NCBI RefSeq assembly: GCF_000025945.1
Contig: NC_006138.1
Coordinates: 2,670,001 to 2,702,000, forward strand
Length of the DNA stretch: 32,000 bases
DNA from: Desulfotalea psychrophila LSv54
GTDB taxonomy: Bacteria; Desulfobacterota; Desulfobulbia; Desulfobulbales; Desulfocapsaceae
Reading direction: 5' to 3'
In this document: positions 547 to 25,621 of the stretch, in pieces
Position numbering within the stretch: the first letter of the stretch is position 1
How the letters are laid out: each line of letters begins with the position of its first letter
Notes under the pieces: generated by a model
Databases searched by the model: none
What the model saw: only the letters and a program-made list of their open reading frames with translations
What the model was told of the DNA's origin: nothing
Position numbers and translations under genes: made by a program

Positions 547-835
547 CTTCTTTGTTGTAAGGGCATGCCCTACAGGTTTTCAACCGGCATAAGCATGGTT
601 GATATCAAAAAAAAGTCTATCAGATCATGGATCTTCAACCTTTGTAATCTTAACCGAAAAGAGGGGCACTGGCTGGGGGCTACAAGATCAGCCTCTCAGC
701 AGCTCCGGTCGGTTCCACAGACAATACGAGCAACAAATGCTGAGCCTGGAGAGGATGAAAGGCCTGCTTGAGAACAGGTTCATTAGCGGGACCACGTTGA
801 ACAATTTCCTAGCTACATGTTTGATTATCTGTGGA

Positions 836-1283
836 TTATTTAAACAAAAACCTTTCTCTAAACCACCCAAGTTGCAACGTTGGTAAAAAGAATATCTTTA
901 AACCATATTTGTATTGAAATGGTCGGTATTTATTTAGAGTATCGGTAAAATTTAACAATTTTTTCTCATCTTCGTCATAGCCTTGTTCTATTTTTATTTC
1001 TATGACCAAAAGATTATTCTCAAGTTCAAGCCTTCCACGTTTATGTATAACGATATCTGGTCTCTTATGATTTTTGTGAGAATCATGTTTCGGGTCAAGT
1101 TCTTCACCCATTTCGTTGTATTCACAATCAACATTAAATCCAGAGAAATACTCTTCTAGATTAACAGCATAACCTATGCGCAGTTGCCCATTCCAGTTTA
1201 TTGCATATCAGTTCCAGATCGTTGATCTGAACCTTTTTTATTGCCCCTAAGATAATTTTTTCTAAAATTTCGTGTTCCATCAT
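836..1283 (-). pseudogene. PD-(D/E)xK nuclease-fold-like protein, frameshifted
   Basis: The C-terminal ORF 836..1111 contains RPDIVIHKRG...NLLVIEIK, a D...E.K restriction-endonuclease-like core. That frame stays open to 1207 (..NGQLRIGYAVNLEEYFSGFNVDCEYNE..) without a start codon. A 40-codon ORF beginning ATGATG at 1283 runs into it in a different frame. Confidence 0.5.
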
Positions 1284-1341
1284 TTTTTTATCCAATGCAC
1301 TTCATCTTTTATTTAGATAACGCCAAGTTAAATAGCGCACG

Positions 1342-1707
1342 TTAACGCATCTCAGCTTTAGTCCTTATTGGCTTCTTGAACTTCGAAGCTAGTTTAAATT
1401 TTAAGTTGCTTACGGTCTCTTCTCTATCAAAAGAGGCTTGAACTGCAATAATTGGGATACAATTTCTTTTAGCCTCACGCAACTCCCATTGAACCCATTC
1501 AGACTCATTAATAGAGTTGGATGACATTAGCAGTAACAATTGAGCTTGCGATAGCATCTGTTCTACGTGGCGTTGCTTGTCTATTGAGTCGTTATGTAAC
1601 AAGTCGATGTAATAAGACCCGTATTCTGAAAGCACCTCGGACACACTCTCTAATAGTTTACGATCAATATAGTGATCTCTAGTGGTATAACTAACGAATA
1701 TTCCCAT
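1342..1707 (-). CDS. minimal TIR-like domain protein (~121 aa)
   Basis: N-terminal IFVSYTTRD strand motif. SEWVQWELREA matches the S-x-W-x-x-x-E-L TIR motif that carries the catalytic Glu. ATG at 1707 is preferred over the TTG at 1719 used by the ORF track. The start lies 1 nt after the stop of the upstream membrane ORF. Confidence 0.7.
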   Translation of the reverse strand: MGIFVSYTTRDHYIDRKLLESVSEVLSEYGSYYIDLLHNDSIDKQRHVEQMLSQAQLLLLMSSNSINESEWVQWELREAKRNCIPIIAVQASFDREETVSNLKFKLASKFKKPIRTKAEMR

Positions 1708-1708
1708 G

Positions 1709-2156
1709 TCACTTACCAATCCAATTCATAAAAAATGCAAACCAGCCTATAAGCCCTAGTGTCGATAAAGCATAGTAAAGAGACATTGAATGATTAAATG
1801 CCGCACCTAGCCAGCTTACTCCTAATTGTTCAGGTTGATAGTTGTCAATTAAATTTCTTTGAGCTATTGCTTGCAGTTTCCTGTTCATGGCAATTCTCGT
1901 TTTTCTTTGAAAGTAATATGCTGAAAAAATCTGCGACCCAAAACCCGAAGCAAATTAATAGCGGTATGAGAAAATATGTATGATCAAGTTGGTTGTCAGT
2001 AAGTTTAACTAGTATAGCTAAAGCGGCACCAATAAGCCCTACACATATTTTTTTGAACTCAAAACAGCTCTTACTAATCTGTAGTGTAGCCTCATGAAGT
2101 TGATCCACGCACGCCCAGTCTAATTCGTCCTCACATGTTTTCTTATATTCTGTCAT
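1709..2156 (-). CDS. small three-TM membrane protein, split into two overlapping ORFs (1845..2156 and 1709..1888) by a frameshift
   Basis: The 103-aa ORF has two hydrophobic helices (GLIGAALAILV, FLIPLLICFGFWVADFF) followed by a hydrophilic junk-like tail. A 59-aa ORF in another frame (MNRKLQAIAQRNL...LYYALSTLGLIGWFAFFMNWIGK) adds a third helix and ends at TGA 1709-1711. Removing one base from the A6/T6 run at 1924-1929 fuses them into one ~148-aa protein. Confidence 0.5.
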
Positions 2157-2242
2157 ATGTTTTTCGTACTCTAAATTTTTTGGGGTGAAGCTAACGCTTC
2201 AAACACCTGCGCAGCTTTGCTGCGTCCGAGTGCTTTGATTTG

Positions 2243-3160
2243 TTATGCTTTTTTATTATTATTTATAGATGCAAGGACATTAGGTATATCATCAATAGAA
2301 CATAATGTAATTTGGTTTGAGGCAACGCCGCACTTTTCCAGTTGTCTTATGTGGTTTTTCCCTTCGTCTTCTGAGTATTGACTAACAACCCATTTACTAC
2401 TTTGGGTCACGTTGGATATCTTTTTAAAATATGGAATATCAATGTCATTTAAAGAATGGCCTATGACCACTACAACCTCGACATTTTCAAGATTTTTGAA
2501 GTAACTAAGACTGTAATCTATAATGTCGTCAATCGGCTTCTGAAAAGCATAAAACGGGTACTTAGCTGAACCTTCAGCGTCAGTGAACATGGTACGATTG
2601 CTTTCCCAATTTTCATCTAATTCAGGTACTTCTTCCATTGACTCGCCATGTCCAAAAATTAAGCGATCATATTTGACGACACTACCATGAATATGAAAAA
2701 CTAGATCATCAGATATTCCATAAACCATTTGAAGAATGGATGTGTAGTTAAATGAGATAAATCGACACGCCGATCTAAAGTCAAACTTCGCTTCGACACC
2801 ATCAATAGAAATGGATTCAATCCACTCCTGAAATTGCTACTGAATGTCATCAACTAAATTGTCAGCCTGCTCTTTGATATCGTCTTCAAGGCCATATGCC
2901 ATGCTTGGCTTGAATGAATCATCTGAGACGTCAATGAAATTATGGTTATTATAAAATATTTCCCAATCGAACTTGCCAAGAACTACTTCAAAGTTGTTCC
3001 ACGGATTTTCTGTAATTATGTCAAAACATAGATACTGCTCCAACTCATCAAGATGGGTCTCTGAAAACGCATAGAAGTCAGTGTACTTAGTGGGTAACCC
3101 ATGCCATAGATCAAATCCGTTACCAATTACATACAAAATTTCCATGTCGATAATTCCCAT
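2243..3160 (-). pseudogene. abiH: AbiH-family abortive-infection protein interrupted by one in-frame TAG
   Basis: The N-terminal ORF has ILYVIGNGFDLWHGLPTKYTDFY, the AbiH signature. The C-terminal ORF has FHIHGS and VVIGHSLNDIDIPYF. ORFs 2837..3160 and 2243..2728 are in the same frame. The 36 intervening codons (QFQEWIESISIDGVEAKFDFRSACRFISFNYTSILQ) are open. The only block is the TAG at 2837-2839. Confidence 0.8.
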
Positions 3161-3282
3161 CCGTAACGATTTGTATATGGGTTCGCATAACGCCTCGTCA
3201 ACTGGCGCGAGATTGTTGTTTTTGCGTGTTTTTGTTTTGCAAAAATAATGACAGCCGTTACACGTCTGCTTGATTTACCTTA

Positions 3283-4050
3283 TTAAGCCGTTTCTAACTT
3301 ATATTGTCCTGTGGACATTTTTGCTCTAGTTAATCTAGGACGACATCCTGCTCGTTCGGGCAAATCATTAACCAGGATTTCCAGTTCTCGATAATTATTA
3401 GAAGACATTTTTGTACCAGCTATTACCCGAGTAATCATAGTCTGGTCAAACTTATGGATACCCGGCCCTTTTTTCATAGCAAGTACTCTATACTCTGACT
3501 CATACTCCCAATCTAATGATTTAGTCAAAAATATTTTTTTTACTGCATTAAAATTTCTAGTACCTGCAATAATGATTGGCATATTCGCAGAGTACTCAAC
3601 ATCCCAACCAAATAGCTTTTTCTCTACGTTGCCCATATGCATATTTTCATTTACGTTGTTGGTAGTAAACTCAACTACAAATCCTGCATGATTATCAGCA
3701 TAATGCGACCACATAAGGATATTGTCAGGCTTTTTCGTCAAGCAACATATTCCAACATTACCAATAATCCCATCATGAAACACACCAGATTTCAAAGACT
3801 TTCTTATACCATCAAGCATTTTATTTTTCTTTTGTATACAACTGGCTGGTGACAACCCTAGCTGCCGACCTACTTCCTTAAATATGTCAGGACGAGATTC
3901 TATGTACAGCATCGATTCGTCAATGTCATACGCCGTTTTGCAATCAAACGGATCATTAAATTCTGAGTAATGGCTAAATTTCATAGTGCCTTGGGACAAA
4001 ATGCATTTTGAGCCATCAGTAAATGGTAAGTATTTATAAAATTTCAGCAC
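3283..4050 (-). CDS. DUF2971 family protein
   Basis: N-terminus FYKYLPF....ILSQGTMKFSHYSEFNDPFD matches the DUF2971 hallmark (YKY ... L.FS....FNDPFE). GTG start at 4050. Confidence 0.75.
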   Translation of the reverse strand: MLKFYKYLPFTDGSKCILSQGTMKFSHYSEFNDPFDCKTAYDIDESMLYIESRPDIFKEVGRQLGLSPASCIQKKNKMLDGIRKSLKSGVFHDGIIGNVGICCLTKKPDNILMWSHYADNHAGFVVEFTTNNVNENMHMGNVEKKLFGWDVEYSANMPIIIAGTRNFNAVKKIFLTKSLDWEYESEYRVLAMKKGPGIHKFDQTMITRVIAGTKMSSNNYRELEILVNDLPERAGCRPRLTRAKMSTGQYKLETA

Positions 4051-4186
4051 AAAGATCCCTCACTTTTACGACTGCGGCTTGGTTATGATTGATCAATGAT
4101 GATCTTTAATTTAGAATTTTGGCAAAAGCCCAATCAGCGAAATATTGCCATGCTCTTTATACATTTATGGGGGGCTAATGAAATAT

Positions 4187-4540
4187 TCAATCAAGTGCTT
4201 CTTTTTTCCAATCAATCATTGATATTTCAGGGATAAATATAGATTTTTTATCCAAATTTCCATCTCCATTTTCATCAATTAACATATACTCTTGCAAACC
4301 ATCTCCATTTTCATCAACGTTTATTCTTCTGATGATTCGGTCTCTATATACTATCTGAGCAATTGACCCATCATTAGCTTTAATTTTTAAATATTGAATA
4401 TAGCTTTTTTTAATTACGTCTGAATTGTAAAAACCGTCCCATTGATCAATTACCTTGCCACCTAACCATCTATTTGGATTAAGTTGGCTATTTTTACCAA
4501 TTTCATGAGTTTCCAATTTAATAGTTGGAGGCCAAATCAT
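4187..4540 (-). CDS. hypothetical small protein with two DENGDG (DxDxDG-like, Ca-binding-type) motifs
   Basis: ORF of 117 aa containing VDENGDGLQE and IDENGDGNLD spaced 10 residues apart. Same strand and composition as the neighbouring island genes. Confidence 0.5.
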   Translation of the reverse strand: MIWPPTIKLETHEIGKNSQLNPNRWLGGKVIDQWDGFYNSDVIKKSYIQYLKIKANDGSIAQIVYRDRIIRRINVDENGDGLQEYMLIDENGDGNLDKKSIFIPEISMIDWKKEALD

Positions 4541-4569
4541 ACTTACAGATATCGGTTTAAATATAAAAT

Positions 4570-5181
4570 TTAAATTTTCATTGACAGGTGGATAGTTTTT
4601 GGCATTGATCGAAATACCAATATTAATTTTTTTTGGAATAAAATGTCTTTTTTTTCATTTACATGGAGACCAATAATTGTTGCTGTATACGCTGGAACTC
4701 CATCTGACAAAACCACAAGTATTTCTTCAACTGCAAAAAAAGTTGGAAATGAAAGCACATCAATTGTTGGTAACGGAGTATAATTTTTTGAAACTGACAA
4801 TAAACCAAAATTGTGCTCGAAAACTAACTTTCCCGGTTCAATTGGAACCTTTTGTTCAGCTTCTGATCTGATATCCAATGATTTATCATAAGTTAATTCA
4901 ACTTTGACAATTTCTAGGGGCTCATCATTTTTATTCTTTATTGCTAGATTAATCGGCATCCTAATCCTACTTGCGAACAAATCGCTTTCGTTCAAGGTGA
5001 CTTCGATGTTATTTGTATCGACTAAAAAAATATCACCCTTTTGATCTTTTTTATACCATGCGATTCCTATTTTTAAGTTTTTATACCAACCATTTATTTC
5101 CTGACACACACTAAACGCCGAAGATATTAAACCAGCAATTAAAGCTAATCCGCCTATTATAAGCCATACTTTTTTTAACAT
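4570..5181 (-). CDS. hypothetical N-terminally membrane-anchored protein
   Basis: ORF of 203 aa. The N-terminus KKVWLIIGGLALIAGLISSAF is a single hydrophobic anchor. The rest is beta-rich-looking with no recognised motif. Confidence 0.55.
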   Translation of the reverse strand: MLKKVWLIIGGLALIAGLISSAFSVCQEINGWYKNLKIGIAWYKKDQKGDIFLVDTNNIEVTLNESDLFASRIRMPINLAIKNKNDEPLEIVKVELTYDKSLDIRSEAEQKVPIEPGKLVFEHNFGLLSVSKNYTPLPTIDVLSFPTFFAVEEILVVLSDGVPAYTATIIGLHVNEKKDILFQKKLILVFRSMPKTIHLSMKI

Positions 5182-5455
5182 AATTAGTTTTTTATCGAAT
5201 TACATTGTTAGTTAATTAAATGATTTTGTGGAATGCCATAATTATGATATACTGCCAAATGCACTGTCCAACAAGTTATTACACAGACCTGTAGCACAAT
5301 TTTGTCTAATAGAGGCCCATCATACAGTCGTCTTCCGGCAGACAACATTCTTACAGGGGCCAGGAAAGGCTCTCCCTCCCCTCGCAAAGAGTTGCCCCCC
5401 TCTTACACTATTAATTGGTTATGAGCAATAATTAAGAGCCTTTATCTATGAACAA

Positions 5456-5704
5456 CAGGGCGAGCCCTTGCCCAGCAGGGATGGATTGGCCTGCCTTGCC
5501 CTCCCCCTCTCAGTTGCCCGAACGGAGTGAAGCTGGCGCGTGGGCAGGTCAGGACGGCCTGCCAGCTGCGAGGACAGGAGTCCGTTCGCAACCTTAGTGG
5601 AAGCTGAAACGAGAGTGAGGATTAGCAACTGAGCCGGGGCGGCATGGGGTTCGAAGGGGGGAATGCTTCCCCCTTTGGCCAGTGCGGGTGGCAAGCCGCG
5701 ATCC
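5456..5704 (+). repeat. GC-rich structured repeat, copy 1 (candidate ncRNA)
   Basis: The core 5509-5704 contains CTCAGTTGC (5509-5517) pairing with GCAACTGAG (5625-5633), and CGAACGGA (5519-5526) pairing with TCCGTTCG (5581-5588). It also has the hairpin GGGGGAA-TGC-TTCCCCC (5657-5673) and a terminal stem GCGG/CCGC (5684-5699). Confidence 0.85.
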
Positions 5705-6052
5705 AAAGCAACTCAAAAAAGCAGCCATTATCAGGGTAAAACCTACCTGATTCTTTTAACTAGTCTGGACGGGAAGTACGGGAATAACCATTAGCTATGG
5801 ACAACAGAGGCGAGCCCCTGCCAACAGAGGGGGCGCCCTGCCCTCCCCCTCTCAGTTGCCCGAACGGAGTGAAGCTGGCGCGTGGGCAGGTCAGGACGAA
5901 CTGCCAGCTGCGAGGACAGGAGTCCGTTCGCAGCGTTAGCGGAAGCTGAAATGAGAGTGAGGATTAGCAACTGAGCCGGGGCGGCATGGGGTTCAAAGGG
6001 GGGAATGCTGCTGTTTCCCCCTTTGGCCAGTGCGAGTGGCAACCCGCGATCG
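5705..6052 (+). repeat. GC-rich structured repeat, copy 2 with leader
   Basis: Same core (CTCAGTTGC at 5851-5859, end at 6052). It has a 6-nt insertion confined to the loop of the G/C hairpin. The leader 5705-5800 is homologous to the leader of copy 4. Confidence 0.85.
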
Positions 6053-6460
6053 AGGACAAGCCAATTTTTAGATTGCCCTATCAACGATTAGTCTCAGCGT
6101 GGAAACCCCACAAAGTAACACCTTATCATGGTAAAACTTATCTGATTCTTTTGGCCGTCCCTCAGGAAAGGGACACAGACAAAGGCAATTGTGCTGTAAT
6201 ATTCCGGAACAATGGGAAAAGGAGACAGAGCGAGGTGCTGGACACCAGTTTTCATCGTCCCCCTCTCAGTTGCCCGAACGGAGTGAAGCTGGCGCGTGGG
6301 CAGGTCAGGACGAACTGCCAGCTGCGAGGAGAGGAGTCCGTTCGCAACCTTAGTGGAAGCTGAAACGAGAGTGAGGATTAGCAACTGAGCCGGGGCGGCA
6401 TGGGGTTCAAAGGGGGGAATGCTTCCCCCTTTGGCCAGTGCGGGTGGCAACCCGTGATCC
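6053..6460 (+). repeat. GC-rich structured repeat, copy 3 with leader
   Basis: Core 6265-6460 is near-identical to copy 1. The leader 6053-6150 is homologous to 8330-8405. The segment between leader and core differs from copies 2 and 4. Confidence 0.85.
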
Positions 6461-6491
6461 GGTGACTTTATCATCAAACTCAGGAAATTTG

Positions 6492-6803: not shown

Positions 6804-6857
6804 CTATTTTGAACCCAATCGCACGCTTACGGTTGGGTTTTCACCCTTGGAAAAAGC

Positions 6858-6895
6858 TTGACGCAAACATTTAACTAATATACTAGTATACTAGT
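6858..6895 (+). promoter_or_regulatory. candidate promoter (TTGACG ... TATACT) overlapped by the perfect 14-bp palindrome ACTAGTATACTAGT
   Basis: TTGACG lies at 6858-6863. TATACT occurs at 6879-6884 (15-nt spacer) and again at 6887-6892. The palindrome at 6882-6895 reads the same on both strands and contains a GT..AC core of the kind used by GntR-family operators. Confidence 0.35.
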
Positions 6896-7193
6896 GTGCA
6901 TGAGACGATCAAGTCATCGGAGAGGAAATTGACGAAATTTTTAATAAAATTTGTCTGCCTAGGGGTGTCGTCAATATTGTTCACGGGAATCGATCTATCC
7001 CAGGAACCTGCCACGATTCGTTATACCCCTTCAGCCGATGCAAATGAAGAAGGCACGAGAAAAGAAGGAAATAATTCTGTTAAGAGTTGTGTCGCACAAT
7101 AATAATTGTGGGTTCCTCGACGCGGCCACTTCAATTTGAGAAAGCGGCAACTGTTCTCTCACTAAATTTTTTAAAGTATAGAGGTTATACAAA

Positions 7194-7469
7194 ATGTCTC
7201 AGTTTCAATATGGATTTATCATCAAAGCTCCCGGTTATACATTTGGAGAAAAAAATCAGGTTTTAGAGTCAGACGCATTCAAAAGCAATATTGTTGGCGT
7301 AGGGACAATAGAAGAGGGCTGCGACGCCGCAAAATTGCTTGTTAAAAATGGTGCTACTTTAATTGAACTTTGTAGTGGATTTAAAGCTGAGGATGCGAAG
7401 AAGGTTTTTGAAGCCATCGATGGTTCAGCAAAAGTTGGCTATGTTGGTGATTTTTTCGTTAATGCGTAA
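7194..7469 (+). CDS. hypothetical small protein (91 aa)
   Basis: Clean ORF with RBS AGAGG 8 nt upstream of the ATG, followed by a 12-bp-stem inverted repeat. No motif recognised. Confidence 0.65.
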   Translation: MSQFQYGFIIKAPGYTFGEKNQVLESDAFKSNIVGVGTIEEGCDAAKLLVKNGATLIELCSGFKAEDAKKVFEAIDGSAKVGYVGDFFVNA

Positions 7470-7490
7470 GTAAATATTGGCATAGTGTGT

Positions 7491-7528
7491 TACTCTCAGG
7501 AGGTTTTTGTTAAAATCTCCTGAGAGTA
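7491..7528 (+). terminator. 12-bp-stem inverted repeat between the 91-aa ORF and gntR (terminator or operator)
   Basis: TACTCTCAGGAG (7491-7502) and CTCCTGAGAGTA (7517-7528) are perfect complements with a 14-nt loop. No U-tract follows. Confidence 0.4.
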
Positions 7529-7643
7529 TCTGGCGATACTGTTTACGGTAGTCAAGGTTGGGTAAACGGGATATCAAACATCACAGGTATTGAATAATTT
7601 GTTTCACCCTCTTTAACTCAAATTTTGTTTATAGGAAATTCGA

Positions 7644-8321
7644 ATGCTTAGCGCATCTATCCCGGGAAATCACCTCCTCAGAGTCCAAGTATATAACTAT
7701 CTTGAAAAACAGATGCAACTCGGTAATCTGAAGCCTGGATCTTCGATCAGTGTCAACACAATGATAAAGGAACTCGGCGTGAGCCGAACTCCTCTACGAG
7801 AAGCACTCATATTGCTTCAGGAACAAGGTTTTGTCTCCATTCAACCGCAACGTGGAGTGAAAATTAATGCGCTGAATATGGATGATGTTAAAGATATATA
7901 TGAAATTCTGGGAGGAATTGAATCTAGCATTTTTCTTTCTGTATTTGATAATCTGAGAGAAAAGGAAATTCAACAGATGAAGATGTTGAATAATGAAATT
8001 GAATTAGCTCTCGCAAATGAAGATATAATTAGGCACAATCAATTAAATGTCGATTTTCACGATACTTTTTTAGGGTTATCTAACAACAAACGCATGCTCA
8101 GATATGTGGGAATTCTTAAGATGCAACTCTATGATTTTCCAAGACGAAATTTTGGCATAAAGTGGAACAATAACAACTTGTATCAACATAGACAGTTTAT
8201 CCAGCTCATAGAAGAAGGAAAGGCCGTATCAGCAGCTGACTATCTAAGAGATATTCATTGGGACTTTGATCTTCCCGATTCGTTTCAAATCATCTCTGGC
8301 GCTGAAGAGCACCGAGGGTAA
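7644..8321 (+). CDS. GntR-family transcriptional regulator, FadR/FCD-type C-terminal domain
   Basis: Winged HTH LKPGSSISVNTMIKELGVSRTPLREALILLQEQGFVSIQPQRGVKI. Helical C-terminal half with the DIYEILGGIES pattern typical of FCD domains. Confidence 0.9.
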   Translation: MLSASIPGNHLLRVQVYNYLEKQMQLGNLKPGSSISVNTMIKELGVSRTPLREALILLQEQGFVSIQPQRGVKINALNMDDVKDIYEILGGIESSIFLSVFDNLREKEIQQMKMLNNEIELALANEDIIRHNQLNVDFHDTFLGLSNNKRMLRYVGILKMQLYDFPRRNFGIKWNNNNLYQHRQFIQLIEEGKAVSAADYLRDIHWDFDLPDSFQIISGAEEHRG

Positions 8322-8324
8322 GCC

Positions 8325-8705
8325 ACGAGCCAGGACAAGCCAACTTTTAAATCGCTCTAGCAATGATTAGTCGCAACAGAAAAACCCAAAACTTACCTGA
8401 TTTTTCTGGCCGATCTGGACAGGAAGCACGGAAATAACCATTAGCTATGGATAACAGAGGCAAGCCCCTGCTCGGAAGACAGAGGGTGGACGGGCCTGCT
8501 CTCCCCTCCCCTCTCAGTTGCCCGAACGGAGTGAGGGCGGTGAGCAGGTCAGGACGAACTGCCAGCGGCGTCTAGGAGTCCGTTCGCAGCGCTAGCGGAA
8601 GCTGAAACGAGAGTGAAGATTGGCAACTGGGCCGGGGCGGCACGGGGTTTAAAGGGGGGGGGGATGCTTCCCCCTTTGGTCAGGGTGGCTGGCAAGCCAC
8701 GATCC
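8325..8705 (+). repeat. GC-rich structured repeat, copy 4 (solo, most divergent)
   Basis: Leader 8330-8455 matches the leaders of copies 2 and 3. The core 8513-8705 has 4-nt and 2-nt deletions and compensatory changes relative to copies 1-3. No minus-strand ORF of 60 aa or more is present here. Confidence 0.85.
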
Positions 8706-8871
8706 ATGCTTACCGGTTAAGACAGTGCAGTGTTTTGTTATTAAAAATTTGTGACAAGATTCATGAGCCAATTTGGCCCCTCTCTTCAGCGTCGCCTCCC
8801 AAACAAGCAAAGACTTCTAGCAAGCTCTATGCTTCTCTGTTTTCTGGGTCGCTTCTCGACGAGAAGCATCT

Positions 8872-9405: not shown

Positions 9406-9758
9406 TTTTCCTCACCTTATTTATAAATGTATGAACCTATCATTACTGTACACATATGCCTAGCGGGAACTCACCGTAGTCTCAACATAAACAGGCCTAA
9501 CCGAGTTACCTCCCGACAATGCAGGATGACGCAAAAAAAAGCGAAGGATCACCCTAGCTCCTTACAAAAAGTTGTATCTGCACCTGTACTACACAATCAT
9601 ATTATAGGCAATAATTAAGGGTGATTAGATGTGCACAGCAGGGAAGACAGCTCAGCTTTCTGGGCAGAGGATGTGGAGGTCTCTGTCACTAGCGAATTGG
9701 CGAGGCAGGAGAGGATGGAATCTAATGCTAAGGAAAAACTTCCGTAAGCTACTCTTAT

Positions 9759-9968
9759 TCAGGCCCTATTTTTTAATAAAAAAGGGCAGGCAACAAGGAC
9801 AATGCCCGTGGGGACAAGAATAAATATATTCGAAATAAAATATGGCATTAGCATCAGCCCTATACCGCTAAGAAACGGAATAATAGCTGTTTGCCTTTTG
9901 CCATAAAGCAAAAGGGCAAGCCCCATTGAGCCAAAAATCACGCCCCACATTAATGTTGATGTATTCAT
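9759..9968 (-). CDS. small two-TM membrane protein (69 aa)
   Basis: ORF with two clear hydrophobic helices. No family recognised. Confidence 0.4.
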   Translation of the reverse strand: MNTSTLMWGVIFGSMGLALLLYGKRQTAIIPFLSGIGLMLMPYFISNIFILVPTGIVLVACPFLLKNRA

Positions 9969-10070
9969 GGCAATGCTCTCATCATATATATTTTTTTACC
10001 CCATAAATCGGCACCTAGCGAAACCTGCTCAGCCCCAACCTCTTCCTAACACCTATACAAGCCCATCATA

Positions 10071-11702
10071 TTATGGGGCAGAAGGAGTATGAGCTGACAA
10101 GATCCGCAACACCTCTTCACATTTTCTGGCTGCCCGGGCAGCTATTTCCTGCGCCACAGAAAGAACCTCCTCTCTATAGAGAGGGTCCTCGATATCCCTC
10201 ATATTAATCAGAACATTCTGATAGGCCCCCCAGATCCCGGTTTCCAGGGCCCTGGCCCCGACCAAGGTATCTGAAGCGGAGGCCGGATTGCCATGACGAG
10301 CGACCTGACAAAAACTGTCCCAGGCCCCATCGGCCAGGCGCATGGTCCCAAGCGGCACATTGATGGCTGTCTTCAGCCCGGCCTCCATCCTGCCATCACG
10401 TCTCTCTCTCTCCTCCTCTGTGGACTGTGGTAGCCGCATCCCTGCCATATAATCGTTAAAGGCCGAGCTATCCCTATCAATCACAGAGATCAGCTGTTGG
10501 GTAAGCTGGTGCAGAACGGGAATTGCCTCCTGCATCTGGGGCTGAACCTCCTCGAATTTTCGCACCCCATGGGTAAGTTTGGCTACCATTGAGCCAAGGG
10601 CGGTGCCGATGGCCGCAATAGCCGCCGAAGCCGAACCGCCACCCGGGGCAGAGCTACGGGCCGCGATCTCTTCAATAAATTCCCGTACAGTGGCCCCGGC
10701 CAGAGGTTCGAGCAGTTTTTCTGCCAGCCGATATTCAATGATTTTTTCCTCTGGCTTAAATTGCGCCACCGAATTGAGACCCAGCCGTTCAATAGCCAGC
10801 CGGATTTTCTGCTCCTCTTCATAGATAAAGAGGTCTTCCTTTTCGATATAGTAATCAGCTGCCATAAGAAGAGTTTCAAGAGGCAACAGACCAACAATCT
10901 CTGAACCGGCCACCGCCAGGTTTAGGGCCCCTGCCTCCTCTTTCACCTCCTCAAAGAGGAGATGAATGGGTGTTACCCGATAGTCGAGAATATTTGCCGT
11001 CACCTGAGCCATATTATACTCCTGCACAAACCAACCCATTGCCCTAACCTCTCGCAGACGACCGGGCGCACCTTCTCCCCTGCCCGCCTCCCGCAGGTTA
11101 AGGGCTATGCGGTGAGCCTGATTAGGCGTTGCCAATATATTAACATTATAGGCGATAAGAAAATTACGGGCCCCCGTGGCCGTAATCCCCCAGCTCGGAA
11201 CAAACTCCGAGGGGCCATAGTCGGGTTGCCATTTTGCCTCTGTCAGGCGGAGAGCCAAGCCCTCATACTCTCCCTGCCGTAAGGCCGAGAGTTCCCGCCG
11301 ATAATCATGCTCTGCGGCAGCCCCATAGAGATAAAGGGGAATCCCGAGTTCCTCCGCCGCCCTCTTGGCAAATCTCCGGGCCAACTGAACACACTCCTCC
11401 ATGCTCACCCCGGTAATAGGGATAAAGGGACAGACATCCATGGCCCCAAAGCGAGGATGCTCTCCACTGTGGTTGCGCATATCTATCAGGGTAGCTGCCA
11501 CCCGGGCCGCGGTCAATGCACCTTCAAGCACAGTCTCCGGGTCACCCACGAAGGTAAAGACGCTTCGATTGGTCGAGCTCCCGGCATCAAGGTCGAGTAA
11601 GGTACATCCGTCGGTCTCTTTAATGGCCCTGGCTATTGCCCCTATAATTTTCTGATCTCTTCCCTCGGAAAAATTGGGAACACACTCCACTATCTTCTTC
11701 AT
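10071..11702 (-). CDS. ftcD: bifunctional glutamate formimidoyltransferase / formimidoyltetrahydrofolate cyclodeaminase
   Basis: The N-terminus KIVECVPNFSEGRD is the formiminotransferase hallmark. The C-terminal third has PGGGSASAAIAAIGTALGSMV, the cyclodeaminase motif. ATG at 11702 with RBS AAGGAGAGGG is preferred over the upstream alternative start at 11726. Confidence 0.9.
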   Translation of the reverse strand: MKKIVECVPNFSEGRDQKIIGAIARAIKETDGCTLLDLDAGSSTNRSVFTFVGDPETVLEGALTAARVAATLIDMRNHSGEHPRFGAMDVCPFIPITGVSMEECVQLARRFAKRAAEELGIPLYLYGAAAEHDYRRELSALRQGEYEGLALRLTEAKWQPDYGPSEFVPSWGITATGARNFLIAYNVNILATPNQAHRIALNLREAGRGEGAPGRLREVRAMGWFVQEYNMAQVTANILDYRVTPIHLLFEEVKEEAGALNLAVAGSEIVGLLPLETLLMAADYYIEKEDLFIYEEEQKIRLAIERLGLNSVAQFKPEEKIIEYRLAEKLLEPLAGATVREFIEEIAARSSAPGGGSASAAIAAIGTALGSMVAKLTHGVRKFEEVQPQMQEAIPVLHQLTQQLISVIDRDSSAFNDYMAGMRLPQSTEEERERRDGRMEAGLKTAINVPLGTMRLADGAWDSFCQVARHGNPASASDTLVGARALETGIWGAYQNVLINMRDIEDPLYREEVLSVAQEIAARAARKCEEVLRILSAHTPSAP

Positions 11703-12031
11703 TGCCCTCTCCTTGGGGAACCTCAAAAAATAGTCTTTTCTTCAAATCTCTACCTTGTATGAAAAAATTTTATCCTCGGAGGTAAACATAGACTCCGATA
11801 TGACGATGCCTATGGTAAATTTTTTAATTCGCCTCGCAGTCGGGGCTGCTCATTATTGAAAATTCTTAATTTCTCTGCCATCACCAACAAAAACTTAAGA
11901 AATGAAATGACTGAGTAAAAAACTCCCCTGCGAAGCGTAAGATTATTTTATTCTTTCGGCGTACTAAAGTACGTCGTAATGATAAAATAACTGCAACAGA
12001 CAAGCAGATGATGATTTTTTACAAGGTCATC

Positions 12032-13276
12032 TCAGTGTACTTTCTCTCCTCGTTTATAGACACTGGCAACAGAAGAGACCCCGGCATGATAGGCAAGAAC
12101 GGCTGGCGTCTCACCTTCCAGCAGAAGAAAATCCGCCTGTTTCCCTCTATCCAAACTACCGACCCTGTCTGCCATATTAAGGGCATAGGCCGAGTTTAAA
12201 CTTGCCCCCGTCAGAGCCTCGGCCGGAGTCATCTCCATATTGAGGACGGCCAGGCCAATAACAAACTGCATTGACTCAGTAAAACTTGAGCCCGGATTAC
12301 AGTCGGTGGCCAGAGCCACGGCCACCCTGTTTTCAATCATCACCCTGGCCCGAGCATAGTCCTTTCTGAGACTATAGGCCGTAGCGGGTAGGAGGGTGGC
12401 AATCACCCCGGCCTGAGACATGGCCCTTATATTGGTGTCACTTGCCGCCAGCAGATGATCCGCCGAACAGGCGCCCAGTTCAGCGGCCAGGCCCGCCCCG
12501 CCAAGATCAGTCACCTCATCGGCGTGGATCTTAAGCCCCAGTCCCATTGCCCGAGCAGCCTTTAATAAAATACGGCTCTGCTCTATGCTAAAAACCCCTC
12601 TCTCACAGAAGACATCACAAAACCGGGCAATCCCCTGTTCCCGGACTCGGGGAAGCATCTCCTCCACGATCATTGTAATAAAGGCATCGGCATCTGTTTT
12701 ATACTGCCCGGGAATGGCATGGGCACCAAGGAAGGTGGCCACTATATCAAGACAGCTGTCTACTGCCACCCGACCAATCACCCTCAGCATCTTCAGCTCA
12801 TTGTCCGTATCCAGCCCATAACCGCTTTTTATCTCCAGACTGGTGGTGCCAAAGCTCAACGCAGTTTGCACCCGATGGAGAGTACTCTTATAGAGCTCAT
12901 CCTCACCTGCCAGAGCGACCGCTCGCACCGAGGAGAGAATTCCACCGCCCTCACTCAGTATTTGCAGATAGGAGGTCCCTGCTATGCGCTGGGCAAATTC
13001 TGCCTCTCTGGGAGCGGCAAAACACATATGGGTATGGGGATCAACGAAGCCGGGAATCATACATCTGCCCCCACAGTCCACCTCCTCCACCTCTGCTCCC
13101 CCCTTGGCCACTGCCAGCACAGCCTCCTCATCGCCCATGGCCACAATCAAACCATCTGCCACCAGCAGGGCCCCATTGGGGAAATGGGCCAGTTTTCCCT
13201 GAGCCTTGCCAGCCGACGGCTGACCGCTGTCCATGGGGCTGTATATCCTTGTATTGCGAAAGAGCTGATGTGACAT
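12032..13276 (-). CDS. hutI: imidazolonepropionase
   Basis: Amidohydrolase metal motif GFVDPHTHMCFAA, plus KIHADE and ATDCNPGSS. Strong RBS AAGGAGG. Confidence 0.95.
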   Translation of the reverse strand: MSHQLFRNTRIYSPMDSGQPSAGKAQGKLAHFPNGALLVADGLIVAMGDEEAVLAVAKGGAEVEEVDCGGRCMIPGFVDPHTHMCFAAPREAEFAQRIAGTSYLQILSEGGGILSSVRAVALAGEDELYKSTLHRVQTALSFGTTSLEIKSGYGLDTDNELKMLRVIGRVAVDSCLDIVATFLGAHAIPGQYKTDADAFITMIVEEMLPRVREQGIARFCDVFCERGVFSIEQSRILLKAARAMGLGLKIHADEVTDLGGAGLAAELGACSADHLLAASDTNIRAMSQAGVIATLLPATAYSLRKDYARARVMIENRVAVALATDCNPGSSFTESMQFVIGLAVLNMEMTPAEALTGASLNSAYALNMADRVGSLDRGKQADFLLLEGETPAVLAYHAGVSSVASVYKRGEKVH

Positions 13277-13544
13277 TTCCTGCCTCCTTATTTTCCATCC
13301 TGAAACGTCCCTCTCGTCCTGGGGCTCTGTAAAACTTTATCCACCGTATATTGTTTGCCCTTTTCTCGCGCTGACTTCGTTTCTCATTCGGTCACATAGC
13401 GCTGCTATGTTTCTTCATTCGTGCCTTGCAGCACACCAAAATGGCTCAACAATATTTACGATATCTAAAGCTCTACAAAGCACTTGCTTATCGTCGTCCG
13501 CAAAATTTAATCCTCGGAGATAAGCGTGGTTCGAGCTCTGCCTG

Positions 13545-15572
13545 CTAGTCTGATTCCGAAAAAAGGAGGGCCACAGCCTCGGCTATCTGGCCTTCATCGG
13601 TCTGAAAGGGAATGGTTATCTGGTCATGGTTTTCATTTTCACCGTTATAGGCCATGGCCACCTGCATGGCATTGGGGTTGCGGGCCCAGTTGCGGCGGGC
13701 AACACCGCCCATCACATCCCAGGAGATGGCGCTGGCCAGTATCTCATCCACCCGAAGACTGCCATCGAGGACCATGGCGAAACCGCCGTTAATCGCCTTG
13801 CCAATTCCGGTTCCGCCACCATTATGCAGGGCCACCAATGACATACCCCGGGCGGCATTACCGGCAAAACAGTGGGTGGCCATATCGGCACAGACGTTAC
13901 TGCCATCGCAGATATTGGCTGTTTCCCGAAAAGGCGAGTCGGTACCACCCGGATCATGATGGTCACGACCGATAATGATCGGGCCCACCTCGCCCCTACG
14001 CACCATCTCGTTAAATTTTAGGGCAATGGCCGTGCGCCCTCCTGCATCGGAGTAGAGAATACGGGCCTGGCTACCGACCACCAGATTATTGGCCCTTGCC
14101 TCCTTAATCCACATATAATTATCGCGATCCTCTAACCTGCGATTAGGATCAATACAGGACATTGCCGCCCTATCTGTCTTAGCAAGATCTTCCGGCCTGC
14201 CACTTAAACAGACCCAGCGAAAGGGGCCATAACCGTAGTCAAAGATCGGCCCCATAATATCTTCAAAGTAAGAGGGAAAGACAAAACCGTCTTTGCCATC
14301 GACACCATTTTTAACAACCTCCGTTACCCCCGCATCAAAGACAGCCTTAAGAAAGGCATTGCCGTAATCAAAAAAATAGGCCCCCTGCTCTGAGAGTTTT
14401 TGAATGGCCGCATAATGACGATGCAGGCTCTTATCGACCAGTGATTTAAAGAGGGGGCGGTCGGTGCCAAGCAGACGGGTTCGCTCGGCAAAATCGATTC
14501 CCTGCGGACAGTAACCACCATCGTAGACAACATGGCAGGAGGTCTGGTCTGAGAGAAGATCGACCGGGAACTTTTTTTCCGCTAAATACTCAAGGAGATC
14601 AACGACATTACCATGGTAGGCAATTGAACTATTATCCCTTGCCGCACGACTCTTATCGGCAATGTTCAAGATCTCGTCTAAATTATCCGAAACCACATCC
14701 ACCCAGCCCTGTTCTTTACGGGTATTGATCCTGGAAAGATCAACCTCGGCGGTGATAGAGACGGCACCTGCAATCTTTGCCGCCTTAGGCTGGGCCCCGC
14801 TCATTCCGCCAAGACCGGAGGTAACAAAGAGCAGACCGGCAAGATTACCCGTCCCCACCCCGCACATCTTTCGCCCACCGTTGAGCAGGGTATTATAGGT
14901 GCCGTGGACAATACCCTGAGGTCCGATATACATCCAGCCTCCGGCCGTCATCTGCCCATATGAGGAGACGCCCATCTGGGCTGCAATCTCCCAATCATCA
15001 GGATTATCGTAGAGACCGACCATCAGGCCATTACTGATAATGACCCTCGGCTGGTCAGGATCTGATTTAAAAAGCCCCAAGGGGTGACCTGACTGCATCA
15101 CCAAGGTTTGCTCTTCGCTCATGGCCTGCAGATATTTTTTTATGAGCCGCAGTTGCATCCAGTTCTGACAAACACTGCCAGTCTCGCCGTAGGTCACCAA
15201 CTCATAGGGATAGAGAGCAATATCAAAATCAAGATTATTGTCAATCATCAGCTGAAAGGCCTTCCCAGCCAAACAGTTCCCCTGATACTGATCGATTGCC
15301 TTGGCCTTTATCAACCCATGAGGACGATAGCGATACCCGTAGATACGGCCCCTGCTCTTCAGTTCTTGTAAAAACTCCGGGATGAGGAGTTGATGGTGCT
15401 GCTCCGGAATATAACGCAGGGCATTTTTCAGGGCGGTCTCGGTCTGACTCCTGCTCAAGCGAAAGCCACGATCCGGAGCACGGCGGATTCCTGGCAAAAA
15501 CTCCTCTTGGACCGGCAGCTCATCGGCCAAGCGAATCTTCATCACCCCGGCAATTTCCGCATTATCAATCAT
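13545..15572 (-). CDS. hutU: urocanate hydratase, long (~675 aa) form
   Basis: Conserved QMTAGGWMYIGPQGIVHGTY, LFVTSGLGGMSGAQP and HDPGGTDSPFRETAN. The N-terminal extension GIRRAPDRGFRLS..ALRYIP is characteristic of the long-form enzymes. ATG at 15572 follows GGGGAGGG, so the ORF-track start at 15638 is less likely. Confidence 0.95.
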   Translation of the reverse strand: MIDNAEIAGVMKIRLADELPVQEEFLPGIRRAPDRGFRLSRSQTETALKNALRYIPEQHHQLLIPEFLQELKSRGRIYGYRYRPHGLIKAKAIDQYQGNCLAGKAFQLMIDNNLDFDIALYPYELVTYGETGSVCQNWMQLRLIKKYLQAMSEEQTLVMQSGHPLGLFKSDPDQPRVIISNGLMVGLYDNPDDWEIAAQMGVSSYGQMTAGGWMYIGPQGIVHGTYNTLLNGGRKMCGVGTGNLAGLLFVTSGLGGMSGAQPKAAKIAGAVSITAEVDLSRINTRKEQGWVDVVSDNLDEILNIADKSRAARDNSSIAYHGNVVDLLEYLAEKKFPVDLLSDQTSCHVVYDGGYCPQGIDFAERTRLLGTDRPLFKSLVDKSLHRHYAAIQKLSEQGAYFFDYGNAFLKAVFDAGVTEVVKNGVDGKDGFVFPSYFEDIMGPIFDYGYGPFRWVCLSGRPEDLAKTDRAAMSCIDPNRRLEDRDNYMWIKEARANNLVVGSQARILYSDAGGRTAIALKFNEMVRRGEVGPIIIGRDHHDPGGTDSPFRETANICDGSNVCADMATHCFAGNAARGMSLVALHNGGGTGIGKAINGGFAMVLDGSLRVDEILASAISWDVMGGVARRNWARNPNAMQVAMAYNGENENHDQITIPFQTDEGQIAEAVALLFSESD

Positions 15573-15782
15573 TTCACCCTCCCCTGTTTTCAGATTACCC
15601 AGCAAACAACAGTAAGCATTTTGAAATAATTGTATCATCCCCTCGCCGCGTATACAAGTTGCTGTAAACTGGCAGTTTCCACTTGATTCAAGCCTGCTTT
15701 ATCTATACGCTTTAAGCGTGGTTATGAATAAGGTATCCCCCACAGCACAGAGCATCTAACCGCCTTAGCAGGAGACACAGCT

Positions 15783-17321
15783 ATGAACAGCAAAATAGAG
15801 ATCAAGCCTGGCAGGCTCACTCTGGCAGAACTTCGCAGGATGGCAAAGGCACCGGTCGGGGTCAGATTAGAAGAGAAGTGTAAAGGAAAAATTAATGCCT
15901 CGGTCCAAACAGTAGGCGAGGTGATCAGACAGGGGCGGGTAATCTACGGCATCAATACCGGCTTCGGCCTGTTGGCAAACACCATTATCCCAAACGAAGA
16001 GCTTGAGCATCTGCAACGATCGCTTATCCTCTCCCATGCGGCAGGTGTAGGTGCTTTCATGGCAGACTCTACGGTGCGGCTGATGATGGTACTCAAGATC
16101 AACAGCCTGGCCCGGGGCTATTCCGGAATACGGCTTGAGGTAATCGAGGCCTTAGTACAGCTGCTCAACGCTGAGGTCTATCCATCTGTCCCCCAAAAAG
16201 GCTCGGTGGGGGCATCGGGAGACCTCGCTCCTCTGGCCCACATGAGCATCGTCCTCCTCGGTGAAGGTGAGGCCTCTTACCGGGGGCAAAGACTATCCGG
16301 GCGGGAAGGTTTAGAGCTAGCCGGTTTATCCCCCATCACCCTCGGCCCCAAGGAGGGACTGGCCCTGTTAAATGGCACCCAGGCATCCACCGCCTTTGCC
16401 CTGCAAGGGCTCTTTGCCGCCGAAGAGCTATTTGCCACAGCCATGGTTTCCGGAAGCTTAAGCCTTGATGCAGCCCTCGGAAGTCGCCGCCCCTTTAATC
16501 CACTTATTCATGCTGTACGCGGACATAAGAGCCAAATAGATGTCGCCGCCTCCTATAGACAACTCCTTGAACATAGTGAGATCGAACGTTCCCATAAATT
16601 CTGTGAGGCCGTTCAGGACCCATACTCCCTGCGCTGCCAACCTCAAGTTATGGGTGCCTGTCTCAACCAGATCCGCAACGCGGCAGAGGTGATCGGCACC
16701 GAGGCAAACGCTGTCTCCGACAATCCCCTGGTTTTCTGTAAAGAAAATGACATCATCTCCGGCGGTAACTTCCACGCTGAACCCATTGCCATGGTGGCCG
16801 ACAACCTGGCCCTGGCCATTGCCGAGATTGGTGCCCTGCCCGAGAGAAGAACGGCCCTGCTCATCGATTCTCATATGTCGGGCCTTCCCCCCTTTCTCGT
16901 TGACAAGGGCGGGCTCAACTCCGGTTTTATGATAGCGCAGGTAACCGCGGCGGCTCTGGCCAGTGAAAATAAGTCCCTTGCCCATCCGGCATCGGTTGAC
17001 AGCCTGCCAACCTCGGCTAATCAGGAGGACCATGTCTCCATGGCAACCTTTGCCGCCAGACGACTCTTGGAAATGGCCGACAATACAGCAGGAATTCTAG
17101 CCATTGAGCTGCTTGCCGCCTGCCAGGGAATCGACTTTCGCGCCCCCCTTAAGACCTCACCCCTGCTGGAAGAGGCCAAGAGCATTGTCCGCCAGGTTGT
17201 GGCCTTTTACGATCAGGACCGCTACCTTGCCCCGGATATCAAAAACGCCCAGGCGCTTGTTCAAGCCGGGGCCTTCAATCACCTGGTCAGCCGCGATCTC
17301 CTGCCAAGTTTTAACAGATAG
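15783..17321 (+). CDS. hutH: histidine ammonia-lyase
   Basis: [15 protein letters not shown] contains the Ala-Ser-Gly triad that forms the MIO cofactor. RBS AGGAGA. Confidence 0.95.
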
Positions 17322-18092: not shown

Positions 18093-18935
18093 CTATCTGT
18101 TCGCGGGCCAGGGGGCGAGCGGCGCATACTCGTTTAGGGCATCGGCTTCAGCCCTGCAGTCACCTGTGGGTGGAAGACCCTTGGTGCGAAAGGCCTTGAG
18201 TTCAGCCTTGGCAACCTCTATCTCGGCCAGAAAAGCTGGATCGGCGTGTAACCTGGCAACCACAGCGGCACCCATGATTCGGCCCATCATCACATCGCTC
18301 TGCCAATGAGCATTACAGACTATCCGGCTCTGACCAAAAGCCCAGCCACGGGCCAGGATCGCATCGGTCTGTTCGGGAGATACCTCAACCAGAATAAGGG
18401 TCCAGGCCCATCCTATGGACGTATGACCAGAGGGATAGGAGCCGGACTTTTTCAGCTGCTCCTCCTGCTGCGGAGTACAGACAGGCTCGCCATTGACCAC
18501 AAAGGGCCGGGTTCGCCTGTAGTTATCTTTGGCCTTATCGGTAGAGAGCGCCGCATCAGTAAGAGTATGGCGCAAAAGCATATAGAGATGGGGTGTCTCT
18601 TCCTCGCTGATGGGGACACCCAGAGCACAGGAAAAGGCCTCCGCTGCCTGAGGAAATGTTAACCTGGCGTCCCGTGCCGCCAAGGTCCAACGAGCTGTAT
18701 CCCGCAGGGTGAGGCTCTGCTTGCTCACCTCTCTATCAAGGGCAAAGGCCGTTGACTCTTTAGCGGGAGGTTGAGGAAGAAGAGCCAGGCTATCTGGTAG
18801 CGTGTCAGTTGCTAAATATCCATCTAAAAAAACCAGCTTCGGTATCGGTTGCAGATCGTTCTGCTTTTCCACCCCTGCACAGCCTGCCAGCAGGAACATG
18901 CACATTACAACGATACTGATTTTAATTCTCTTCAT
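18093..18935 (-). CDS. class A (PAP2-type) nonspecific acid phosphatase, lipoprotein
   Basis: Lipobox LLAGC. Signature KDNYRRTRPF ... YPSGHTS ... SRIVCNAHWQSDV, matching KX6RP / PSGH / SRX5HX3D. Confidence 0.9.
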   Translation of the reverse strand: MKRIKISIVVMCMFLLAGCAGVEKQNDLQPIPKLVFLDGYLATDTLPDSLALLPQPPAKESTAFALDREVSKQSLTLRDTARWTLAARDARLTFPQAAEAFSCALGVPISEEETPHLYMLLRHTLTDAALSTDKAKDNYRRTRPFVVNGEPVCTPQQEEQLKKSGSYPSGHTSIGWAWTLILVEVSPEQTDAILARGWAFGQSRIVCNAHWQSDVMMGRIMGAAVVARLHADPAFLAEIEVAKAELKAFRTKGLPPTGDCRAEADALNEYAPLAPWPANR

Positions 18936-22539: not shown

Positions 22540-22543
22540 GAAC

Positions 22544-25500: not shown

Positions 25501-25621
25501 GTCTAAAAAGAACCAAGAATCCACAGTAATCGTAAACGAGTCTCTTTCTGGCACCATGGCTGCTCTCACCCAGCTCACCGCTTCCAGTCAAGAACTCCAA
25601 AAAGCTGTAAACAACCTTTAA
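22544..25621 (+). CDS. soluble methyl-accepting chemotaxis protein with six tandem PAS-like modules
   Basis: The C-terminal signalling hairpin [41 protein letters not shown] is diagnostic. There is no hydrophobic TM segment. Five 122-aa PAS-like units begin at 22946, 23312, 23678, 24044 and 24410, preceded by one divergent unit. ATG at 22544 follows GAGGGG, so the ORF-track start at 22529 is possible but less likely. Confidence 0.9.
23837..24579 (+). repeat. perfect 366-bp tandem direct duplication (2.03 copies) inside the MCP gene
   Basis: Base-by-base reading shows 23837-24202 identical to 24203-24568. Identity continues 11 nt further, to 24579. The period of 366 nt equals 122 codons, so the duplication is in frame. 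Confidence 0.95.

Follow-up and report, generated by a model that had tools for sequence, protein, structure and literature searches.

A tandem array of a GC-rich structured repeat in Desulfotalea psychrophila LSv54 as a tentative set of sibling RNA genes

A 32-kb window of Desulfotalea psychrophila LSv54 (contig NC_006138.1, 2,670,001 to 2,702,000; by window we mean this whole stretch, and positions are counted from its first base) contains four full copies of a GC-rich repeat element whose cores of about 205 nt can all be folded into the same three-way-junction architecture. The copies lie on the plus strand within a short stretch bordered by degraded genes, and pairing appears to be kept among them. 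Our preferred reading, held tentatively and short of even confidence, is that the array is a lineage-restricted set of sibling genes, some of them now relics, for a structured RNA of about 210-260 nt encoded on the plus strand. The element falls in no described family and is in kind like the known multicopy arrays of structured small RNAs (sRNAs) and repeats.

Four homologous cores in a single array

The original prediction described three head-to-tail copies with a fourth downstream. A repeat finder, MAFFT, nhmmer and a covariance model all recovered this arrangement and agree on four full cores, with no further core match in the window.

5499-5705, plus strand: core copy 1; minimum free energy (MFE) -99.3 kcal/mol, z-score -2.1 on the plus strand
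5841-6053, plus strand: core copy 2; loop of the G-rich hairpin longer by a 6-nt insertion
6255-6461, plus strand: core copy 3
8503-8706, plus strand: core copy 4; the most diverged, with 86-87% identity to the others

The start-to-start distances are 342, 414 and 2248 nt, and the intervening spacers of 135, 201 and 2041 nt are partly homologous to one another. Copies 1-3 are mutually 95-97% identical, compared with 86-87% between each of them and copy 4. The cores stand out by composition, with a GC content of 62-64% against 31-40% in the surroundings and an excess of G (37%) over C (26%) on the plus strand. The signature GCCCGAACGGAG-N30-60-GGAGTCCGTTCGC occurs four times in the window and in none of 100 shuffled versions. 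The full cores and two truncated copies, or stumps, described below share one orientation and all lie inside one 3.3-kb stretch.

Predicted fold and variation between copies

The nested helices and hairpins that had been proposed by eye are all present. The predicted elements of copy 1 are as follows.

5503-5517 / 5625-5642: long-range helix P1
5519-5528 / 5579-5588: helix P2
5533-5550 / 5556-5573: extended P2 hairpin
5589-5624: purine-rich junction strand, 36 nt
5651-5678: G-rich hairpin
5684-5699: terminal hairpin with a GGCA loop

Within these elements of copy 1, CTCAGTTGC (5509-5517) pairs with GCAACTGAG (5625-5633) and CGAACGGA (5519-5526) pairs with TCCGTTCG (5581-5588), and the GGCAG/CTGCC and GGGGGAA/TTCCCCC hairpins are present as well. 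The same architecture can be folded from every core. A closing helix of 15-17 bp, in which CCCC-UCUCAGUUGC is predicted to pair with GCAACUGAG-CC-GGGG, surrounds a helix of 8-9 bp that is extended by an imperfect hairpin (CGAACGGA...UCCGUUCG in the predicted fold, with the apical loop UCAGGACG). On the 3' side of the closing helix follow a very stable G-rich hairpin and the 6-bp hairpin with the GGCA loop. Across all copies the 17 bp of the two main helices show a single change, a wobble, and the segment GGAAGCUGAAAYGAGAGUGA in the junction strand is invariant.

The compensatory changes that had been claimed are present. In the terminal stem, copy 4 replaces C-G by U-A at alignment columns 200/213 and G-C by C-G at columns 203/210, while at columns 97/104, in the small hairpin, copies 1 and 3 have A-U where copies 2 and 4 have G-C. 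The described insertions and deletions are present too, the 6 nt added in copy 2 falling inside the loop of the G-rich hairpin and the deletions of 4 and 2 nt in copy 4 falling on opposite arms of the P2 hairpin. Copy 4 carries in addition 3 extra nt in the G run of the G-rich hairpin stem, and despite its indels it keeps the same architecture. Most one-sided stem changes leave a G-U pair on the plus strand, in line with the earlier description.

Evidence for maintained pairing and for the strand

Variation between the copies had been said to respect the pairing, and we evaluated this in several ways. Of the pair cells in the four-copy alignment, 98.7% are canonical, and in four pairs both partners have changed; the observed covariation score was reached by 2 of 500 column shuffles. 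The substitutions were also subjected to a permutation test in which each was relocated to a random position with the same ancestral base. When the structure was fitted to all four copies, copy 4 had 1 broken pair against 7.9 expected, a result that we discarded as circular because the structure had been chosen using the same sequences. When the structure was taken from copies 1-3 only, the 25 substitutions of copy 4, 16 of them in stems, broke 4 pairs on the plus strand compared with 8.05 +/- 1.78 under the null (P = 0.02). The tendency is supported, with a strength that is only moderate once the circularity is removed. Together with the placement of the indels, which reinforces it, the alignment supports with moderate confidence, and well short of proof by covariation, the view that pairing has been kept among the copies.

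The plus strand had been proposed as the transcribed one, and the analysis favours it only tentatively. The consensus fold of the plus strand reaches -80.2 kcal/mol with a favourable covariation term, compared with -72.2 kcal/mol and an unfavourable term for the minus strand. Against dinucleotide shuffles, copies 1-3 have z-scores of -2.0 to -2.2 on the plus strand, and copy 1 scores -1.1 on the minus strand. About eight one-sided stem transitions keep a G-U pair on the plus strand versus three that break the pair (binomial P ~0.1). The consensus energies, the z-scores and this 8:3 wobble ratio are suggestive of a plus-strand preference and no more than suggestive, since the minus strand performs nearly as well in the non-circular pairing test (below).

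Absence of known families and apparently restricted distribution

The element had been said to belong to no known RNA family, and the searches agree. Rfam 15 gave no match at gathering thresholds over the whole window. At E<=10, including a search with a single unit, it returned only chance fragments of 10-18 bits (snoRNA sR39, a hepatitis C virus (HCV) stem-loop and Cobalamin on the wrong strand). ARAGORN detected no tRNA or tmRNA, and six-frame Pfam searches over the array gave no match, revealing neither a hidden protein nor a transposase remnant. Within the window, nothing meaningful was complementary to the junction strand.

Three described classes were tried and rejected. A protein-sponge RNA of the Csr/Rsm type is not supported, as GGA is not enriched: each core has 5-8 occurrences versus 5.9-6.7 from dinucleotide shuffles (P = 0.26-0.86), with one ANGGA per core. 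A CRISPR array is excluded by repeats of 205 nt rather than 24-48 nt, partly homologous spacers and the lack of cas genes in the window. The third is the Desulfotalea-1 motif, a short hairpin (UGGCA.UCGCUUGCGUNC.CCUCAUCCCUGAGGG...) located by rRNA/5S genes, with 229 representatives across Proteobacteria, which was rated a doubtful sRNA candidate and has no Rfam accession (Weinberg et al. 2010, PMC2864571). It resembles our element in occurring in D. psychrophila and in being a doubtful candidate sRNA without Rfam accession; it differs in sequence, size and genomic position, sits elsewhere in the genome and shares no sequence with the repeat, and the core string CCGAACGGAG is not found in its published alignment (PMC2864571).

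Relatives were sought in several collections; the pattern scans among these searches relied on exact signatures of 17-25 nt, which orthologues more than about 10-15% diverged could escape. Two pattern scans of one genome per GTDB species, which did not return the window's own four copies, gave nothing or chance 20-mers; the eight matches to the junction 20-mer are chance, as nhmmer finds no similarity beyond the 20-mer itself. Two scans of the JGI metagenomes gave chance matches only, the two DNA matches being chance inverted repeats and the 86 peptide-pattern matches being rejected by tblastn. Four scans of the IMG/VR viral contigs likewise gave only chance matches, and blastn in distant mode found no match in PLSDB plasmids or GenBank phages. 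The element is absent from the GntR loci of four Desulfocapsaceae relatives (80-85% amino-acid identity in GntR), within their contigs. Copies elsewhere in LSv54 were judged only indirectly, from an annotated proteome that contains no further paralogous open reading frames (ORFs). The status of an RNA family, for which the original prediction made it a candidate, is not established by four paralogues and two stumps in one 3.3-kb stretch with no orthologue in the collections searched.

Extended repeat units and truncated copies

The repeat unit is larger than the core, to which it adds a leader, a trailer and a weak hairpin followed by a U-tract.

5368-5397, plus strand: stump c0', a tentative remnant of a core 5' end (GCTCTCCCTCCCCTCGCAAAGAGTTGCCC), from local alignment to copy 4
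5419-5498, plus strand: leader of copy 1, from alignment and a repeat family
5728-5757, plus strand: weak hairpin and U-tract after copy 1 (TTATCAGGGTAAAACCTACCTGATTCTTTT), from repeat families; -7 kcal/mol, z-score -1.6
5758-5840, plus strand: leader of copy 2; 84.5% identity to the copy 4 leader
6054-6122, plus strand: trailer of copy 2, from a repeat family (6038-6108 versus 8317-8387, 76%)
6123-6152, plus strand: degenerate hairpin/U-tract after copy 2; -3.3 kcal/mol
8300-8410, plus strand: stump cX', from repeat families and the end of the relatives' alignment
~8300-8330: part of cX', what is left of the terminal hairpin at the 3' end of a lost core, joined to the end of the GntR gene
8331-8387: part of cX', trailer
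8388-8410: part of cX', half of a hairpin/U-tract
8411-8502, plus strand: leader of copy 4, from a repeat family and alignment

The block CTATGAACAACAGGGCGAGCCCTTGC in the leader of copy 1 is common to the leaders of copies 2 and 4, and a trailer of about 70 nt is common to copy 2 and the sequence ahead of copy 4. The 100 nt upstream of copy 3 (6153-6254) have no homology to the other leaders. At 5368-5397, 24 of 26 bases agree with the 5' end of copy 4 once a 4-nt insertion and a 1-nt deletion are allowed for; the match is short, and we assign this segment as a truncated core copy only tentatively.

A further 42 nt at 9602-9643 have 74% identity to 5419-5460, upstream of copy 1, and share GCAATAATTAAG. 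This segment sits in a 660-nt stretch (9406-10070) that lacks a large ORF and precedes histidine-utilisation genes; the similarity could be chance or another leader remnant.

A decaying neighbourhood

To the left of the array, at about 800-5200 on the minus strand, lies a defence-type gene cluster of low GC content (31-38%) in which several genes are degraded. No integrase or tRNA marks a boundary of this cluster. The genes on both sides of and between the copies are listed here.

1342-1719, minus strand: ThsB-like TIR fragment
2243-2728 and 2837-3160, minus strand: AbiH, split in two ORFs
3283-4050, minus strand: PDC-S31/DUF2971 gene
4187-4540, minus strand: orphan gene, 117 aa
4570-5181, minus strand: orphan gene, 203 aa
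6492-6790, minus strand: truncated YggL-like ORF (PF04320), convergent with copy 3 and 30 nt from its end
6838-6890, plus strand: remnant of an aldehyde dehydrogenase promoter region
6923-7016, plus strand: internal piece of the aldehyde dehydrogenase
7005-7105, plus strand: 3' end of the aldehyde dehydrogenase
7194-7469, plus strand: DUF6506 gene (Pfam)
7644-8321, plus strand: GntR/FCD regulator (Pfam), 225 aa

In the YggL homologue roughly the first 10 positions of the profile are missing, and there is no clear start codon. Between copy 3 and the 3' stump, positions 6838-8300 are 79-87% identical by blastn to a locus conserved in Desulfocapsaceae, in which DctP, aldehyde dehydrogenase, DUF6506 and GntR follow one another in this order. 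The aldehyde dehydrogenase, intact in a relative (512 aa), is present in D. psychrophila as three fragments, and the 68-aa ORF at 6896-7102 is a by-product of this fragmentation. The alignment to all four relatives ends at 8299/8300, the last sense codon of the GntR gene. Where homology ends the relatives have a TGA stop, and the D. psychrophila gene reads into the remnant of the core terminal hairpin, which supplies six codons and a new stop (225 aa versus 219 aa in close orthologues). The two sides of the junction share a short motif, CTCTGGC in the GntR gene and CTTTGGC in the core, of the kind typical of illegitimate recombination. These comparisons indicate that the array region is being rearranged and eroded and that the array itself is split and truncated. 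In our reading, unequal or illegitimate recombination has duplicated, truncated and split the array within a decaying variable region.

Two further repeats were seen in the left part of the window. The 117-aa orphan ORF contains a perfect 19-nt direct repeat (CCATCTCCATTTTCATCAA; 4260-4317, copies 39 nt apart) that encodes a duplicated DENGDG motif. A 41-nt direct repeat with 71% identity (321-361 and 748-788) involves a 176-aa orphan ORF (16-546) and the sequence just downstream of it, a sign that there was some partial duplication where the low-GC region begins on the left.

Other features of the window

The histidine-utilisation cluster at 10071-17321 encodes a formiminotransferase-cyclodeaminase fusion (551 aa), an imidazolonepropionase-like amidohydrolase, urocanase and histidine ammonia-lyase; its urocanase, at 697 aa, is unusually long, the N-terminus being extended by about 110 residues. 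The minus strand carries two paralogous genes for PAP2-superfamily phosphatases (280 and 283 aa) at 18093-18935 and 28763-29614, a distance of 10 kb, and a perfect microsatellite of 4.3 ACTGCA units (29742-29767) is found just upstream of the second. A 366-nt tandem repeat at 22990-24717 (4.7 copies, 86% match), within a 1030-aa ORF (22529-25621), coincides with a tandem run of six PAS domains in a methyl-accepting chemotaxis protein, with a CheW-domain gene upstream (21010-22539).

Weighing the RNA-gene reading against alternatives

A number of observations weigh against reading the array as a set of RNA genes. With regard to expression, a consensus scan found no plus-strand promoter ahead of the cores apart from a 9/12 match at 6100-6129, the shared leader offered no acceptable sigma-70 or sigma-54 match by eye or by scan, and copy 3 has a leader unrelated to those of the other copies. 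The downstream hairpin/U-tracts of copies 1 and 2, at -7 and -3.3 kcal/mol, show no compensatory maintenance; the hairpin after copy 1 was not called in a terminator scan, and intrinsic terminators after the cores were rejected because the hairpins are weak. With regard to structure, GC-rich sequence folds well anyway and the z-scores are modest, that of copy 4 being only -1.1. The non-circular pairing test attains only P about 0.02, and on the minus strand the same test gives 5 broken pairs versus 8.97 expected (P = 0.035). Permutations on single-copy MFE structures were mostly non-significant, although this version of the test is low in power because such structures hold many spurious pairs. 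Between copies 2 and 4 the core (86.8% identity) is not clearly better kept than the leader (84.5%) or trailer (76-80%), a pattern that speaks against strong purifying selection acting on the sequence as such. Conservation is seen among paralogues only and is open to homogenising gene conversion, neither orthologues nor other homologues turned up in the collections searched, and the truncation of two copies implies that the array is decaying.

Several of these points would follow directly if the array were a non-functional relic, that is, GC-rich and palindrome-rich foreign or mobile DNA that was tandemly duplicated and is now drifting and deleting, with a foldability that is inherited and not selected. 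The occurrence of copies in one locus of one genome only, the two truncated copies, the similar divergence of core and flanks, the failure to find expression signals and the weakness of the structural tests without circularity are all consistent with such an origin, as are the decaying neighbours (the split AbiH, the truncated YggL-like ORF and the fragmented aldehyde dehydrogenase). It accounts less readily for the pattern of change, however. The substitutions of copy 4 still avoid breaking helices (P = 0.02), two adjacent and fully compensated pairs occur in one 6-bp stem, indels are matched on both arms of a hairpin, and the 17 bp of the main helices contain one change, a wobble. Nor could a source element be identified in Rfam, plasmids, phages or Pfam. 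A relic is the main rival reading, a serious possibility that we hold somewhat less likely than the RNA genes.

The compensatory changes and the strand-asymmetric G-T wobbles would be equally expected of folded single-stranded DNA, and the repeat might instead work as DNA, in the form of a folded single strand or a cruciform that serves a recombinase, transposase or replication protein. The principle is familiar from integron attC sites, IS200/IS605 ends and single-strand origins. Such a role would explain the presence of copies at rearrangement junctions, where a short motif common to both marks the exact join between the end of the GntR gene and a core stump and where an ancestral block is bracketed by copies, and invariant stem sequences would also be expected of protein recognition sites. 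However, scans of ORFs across the window, by Pfam and PADLOC for the neighbours of the array, detected no gene for an integrase, transposase, relaxase, Rep protein, reverse transcriptase, Cas protein or ToxN-like protein in the window. The attC core sites (RYYYAAC...GTTRRRY) are absent from the cores, whose inverted repeats are ordered the other way round (GTTGC...GCAAC) and whose GTTGCCC departs from GTTRRRY, and neither terminal inverted repeats nor target-site duplications occur at the core boundaries. The GntR junction looks like a one-off illegitimate recombination. We therefore regard a DNA-level function as unlikely.

The array directly adjoins the low-GC defence cluster with its ThsB-like TIR, AbiH fragments and PDC-S31/DUF2971 gene, and this raises the possibility that its RNA acts as the non-coding partner, be it antitoxin, decoy or guide, in a defence or toxin-antitoxin system not yet recognised, with the 203-aa and 117-aa orphans as the proteins. 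In type III toxin-antitoxin systems of the ToxIN kind, RNA repeats of 34-45 nt are followed on the same strand by the gene for a ToxN/AbiQ endoribonuclease, and a repeated RNA beside a protein of about 200 aa resembles this layout. The units here measure 340-414 nt, however, the neighbours lie on the strand opposite to the favoured RNA strand, and no domain of the ToxN/AbiQ, reverse transcriptase or Cas type was found in them. For the 203-aa protein only one distant relative came up, on a contig of 1.4 kb that is uninformative as to conserved linkage, and copy 4 lies 3 kb off beside unrelated genes. A partnership of this kind is very improbable.

Finally, the minus-strand ORFs of 86, 97 and 127 aa over the repeats (100% identical to LSv54 proteins annotated as unknown, one of them DP2345) can be dismissed as a small paralogous protein family, as had been argued from copy 4: an open frame does span each of copies 1-3 and the indels sum to multiples of three (-4 and -2, +3, +6), but a GC content of 63% leads one to expect long ORFs by chance, the frame is broken in copy 4, inside the shifted stretch even though -4 and -2 sum to -6, there is no codon-level signal (9 synonymous versus 22 non-synonymous changes, 8/12/11 over the codon positions, hence no third-position excess), Pfam gave no match, and protein searches with a scope given as about 15 billion proteins (phmmer against 5.8 billion clusters, profile HMM against 1.84 billion representatives) found only the four ORFs themselves.

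Comparison with known systems

Reading the array as sibling RNA genes invites comparison with CcsR1-4 and other cuckoo RNAs of Rhodobacter, LhrC1-5 of Listeria and the multicopy RsmX of Pseudomonas. These too are homologous structured non-coding units arranged head to tail on one strand in intergenic sequence, with conserved cores and variable spacers. Sibling sRNAs are 60-120 nt long, have their own promoter and terminator and occur across species, whereas the cores here are about 205 nt with a three-way junction, their expression signals are unclear and no orthologue was found; the Rfam models of sibling-sRNA families do not match the element.

Structured extragenic repeats, namely REP/BIME, ERIC, BOX and miniature inverted-repeat transposable elements (MITEs) of the Correia/NEMIS type, form a second group of relevance. 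Like our element they are non-coding, hairpin-forming, species-restricted and often annotated as spurious ORFs, and repeats of this type can act as RNA when co-transcribed. They are dispersed in tens to hundreds of copies, the MITEs with terminal inverted repeats and target-site duplications, whereas here there is one cluster in the window and neither of these features.

Arrays of attC sites share with the element the use of species-specific structured repeats to separate short, often non-coding segments in a variable region of low GC content. attC sites function in one strand orientation, and their structure is more conserved than their sequence. They are 57-141 nt long, carry RYYYAAC...GTTRRRY and are served by the IntI integrase, in contrast to cores of about 205 nt with neither such sites nor an integrase in the window. 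The msr-msd of retrons is similar in length (about 170-200 nt), in the long-range inverted repeat (a1/a2) that closes internal hairpins and in its occurrence in defence islands. Here, however, there is no reverse transcriptase gene beside any copy, the 5' arm is not followed by an unpaired branching G, the Rfam msr model is unmatched, and retron RNAs are single-copy whereas the element is arrayed.

Implications

The array is best described as a tandemly amplified structured module that would be restricted to a strain or lineage; its transcription, its function on the plus strand and its mode of action are what we infer from the features above. In a stronger version of the RNA-gene reading, which we consider possible but short of probable, the element would define an undescribed class of three-way-junction RNA of about 210 nt, with a fold under selection, amplified in D. 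psychrophila and very close relatives only. In both versions, by analogy with multicopy bacterial sRNAs, contact with a target RNA or protein would be made by the invariant junction strand and by the apical loop UCAGGACG; in the stronger one the target would be of cellular or phage origin. At its far end, the stronger version would have the element supply the RNA for a system, not yet recognised, of the neighbouring cluster of defence genes.

The apparent restriction to a single strain blocks comparative validation and makes a broad role unlikely. Independent of function, the locus is a clear record of how such arrays get broken up. To our knowledge almost no sRNAs have been characterised in the Desulfobacterota. 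If it is transcribed and functional, the element would be a new structured RNA class from this phylum, in a psychrophilic sulfate reducer, and an example of RNA-gene amplification inside a variable, defence-associated region.

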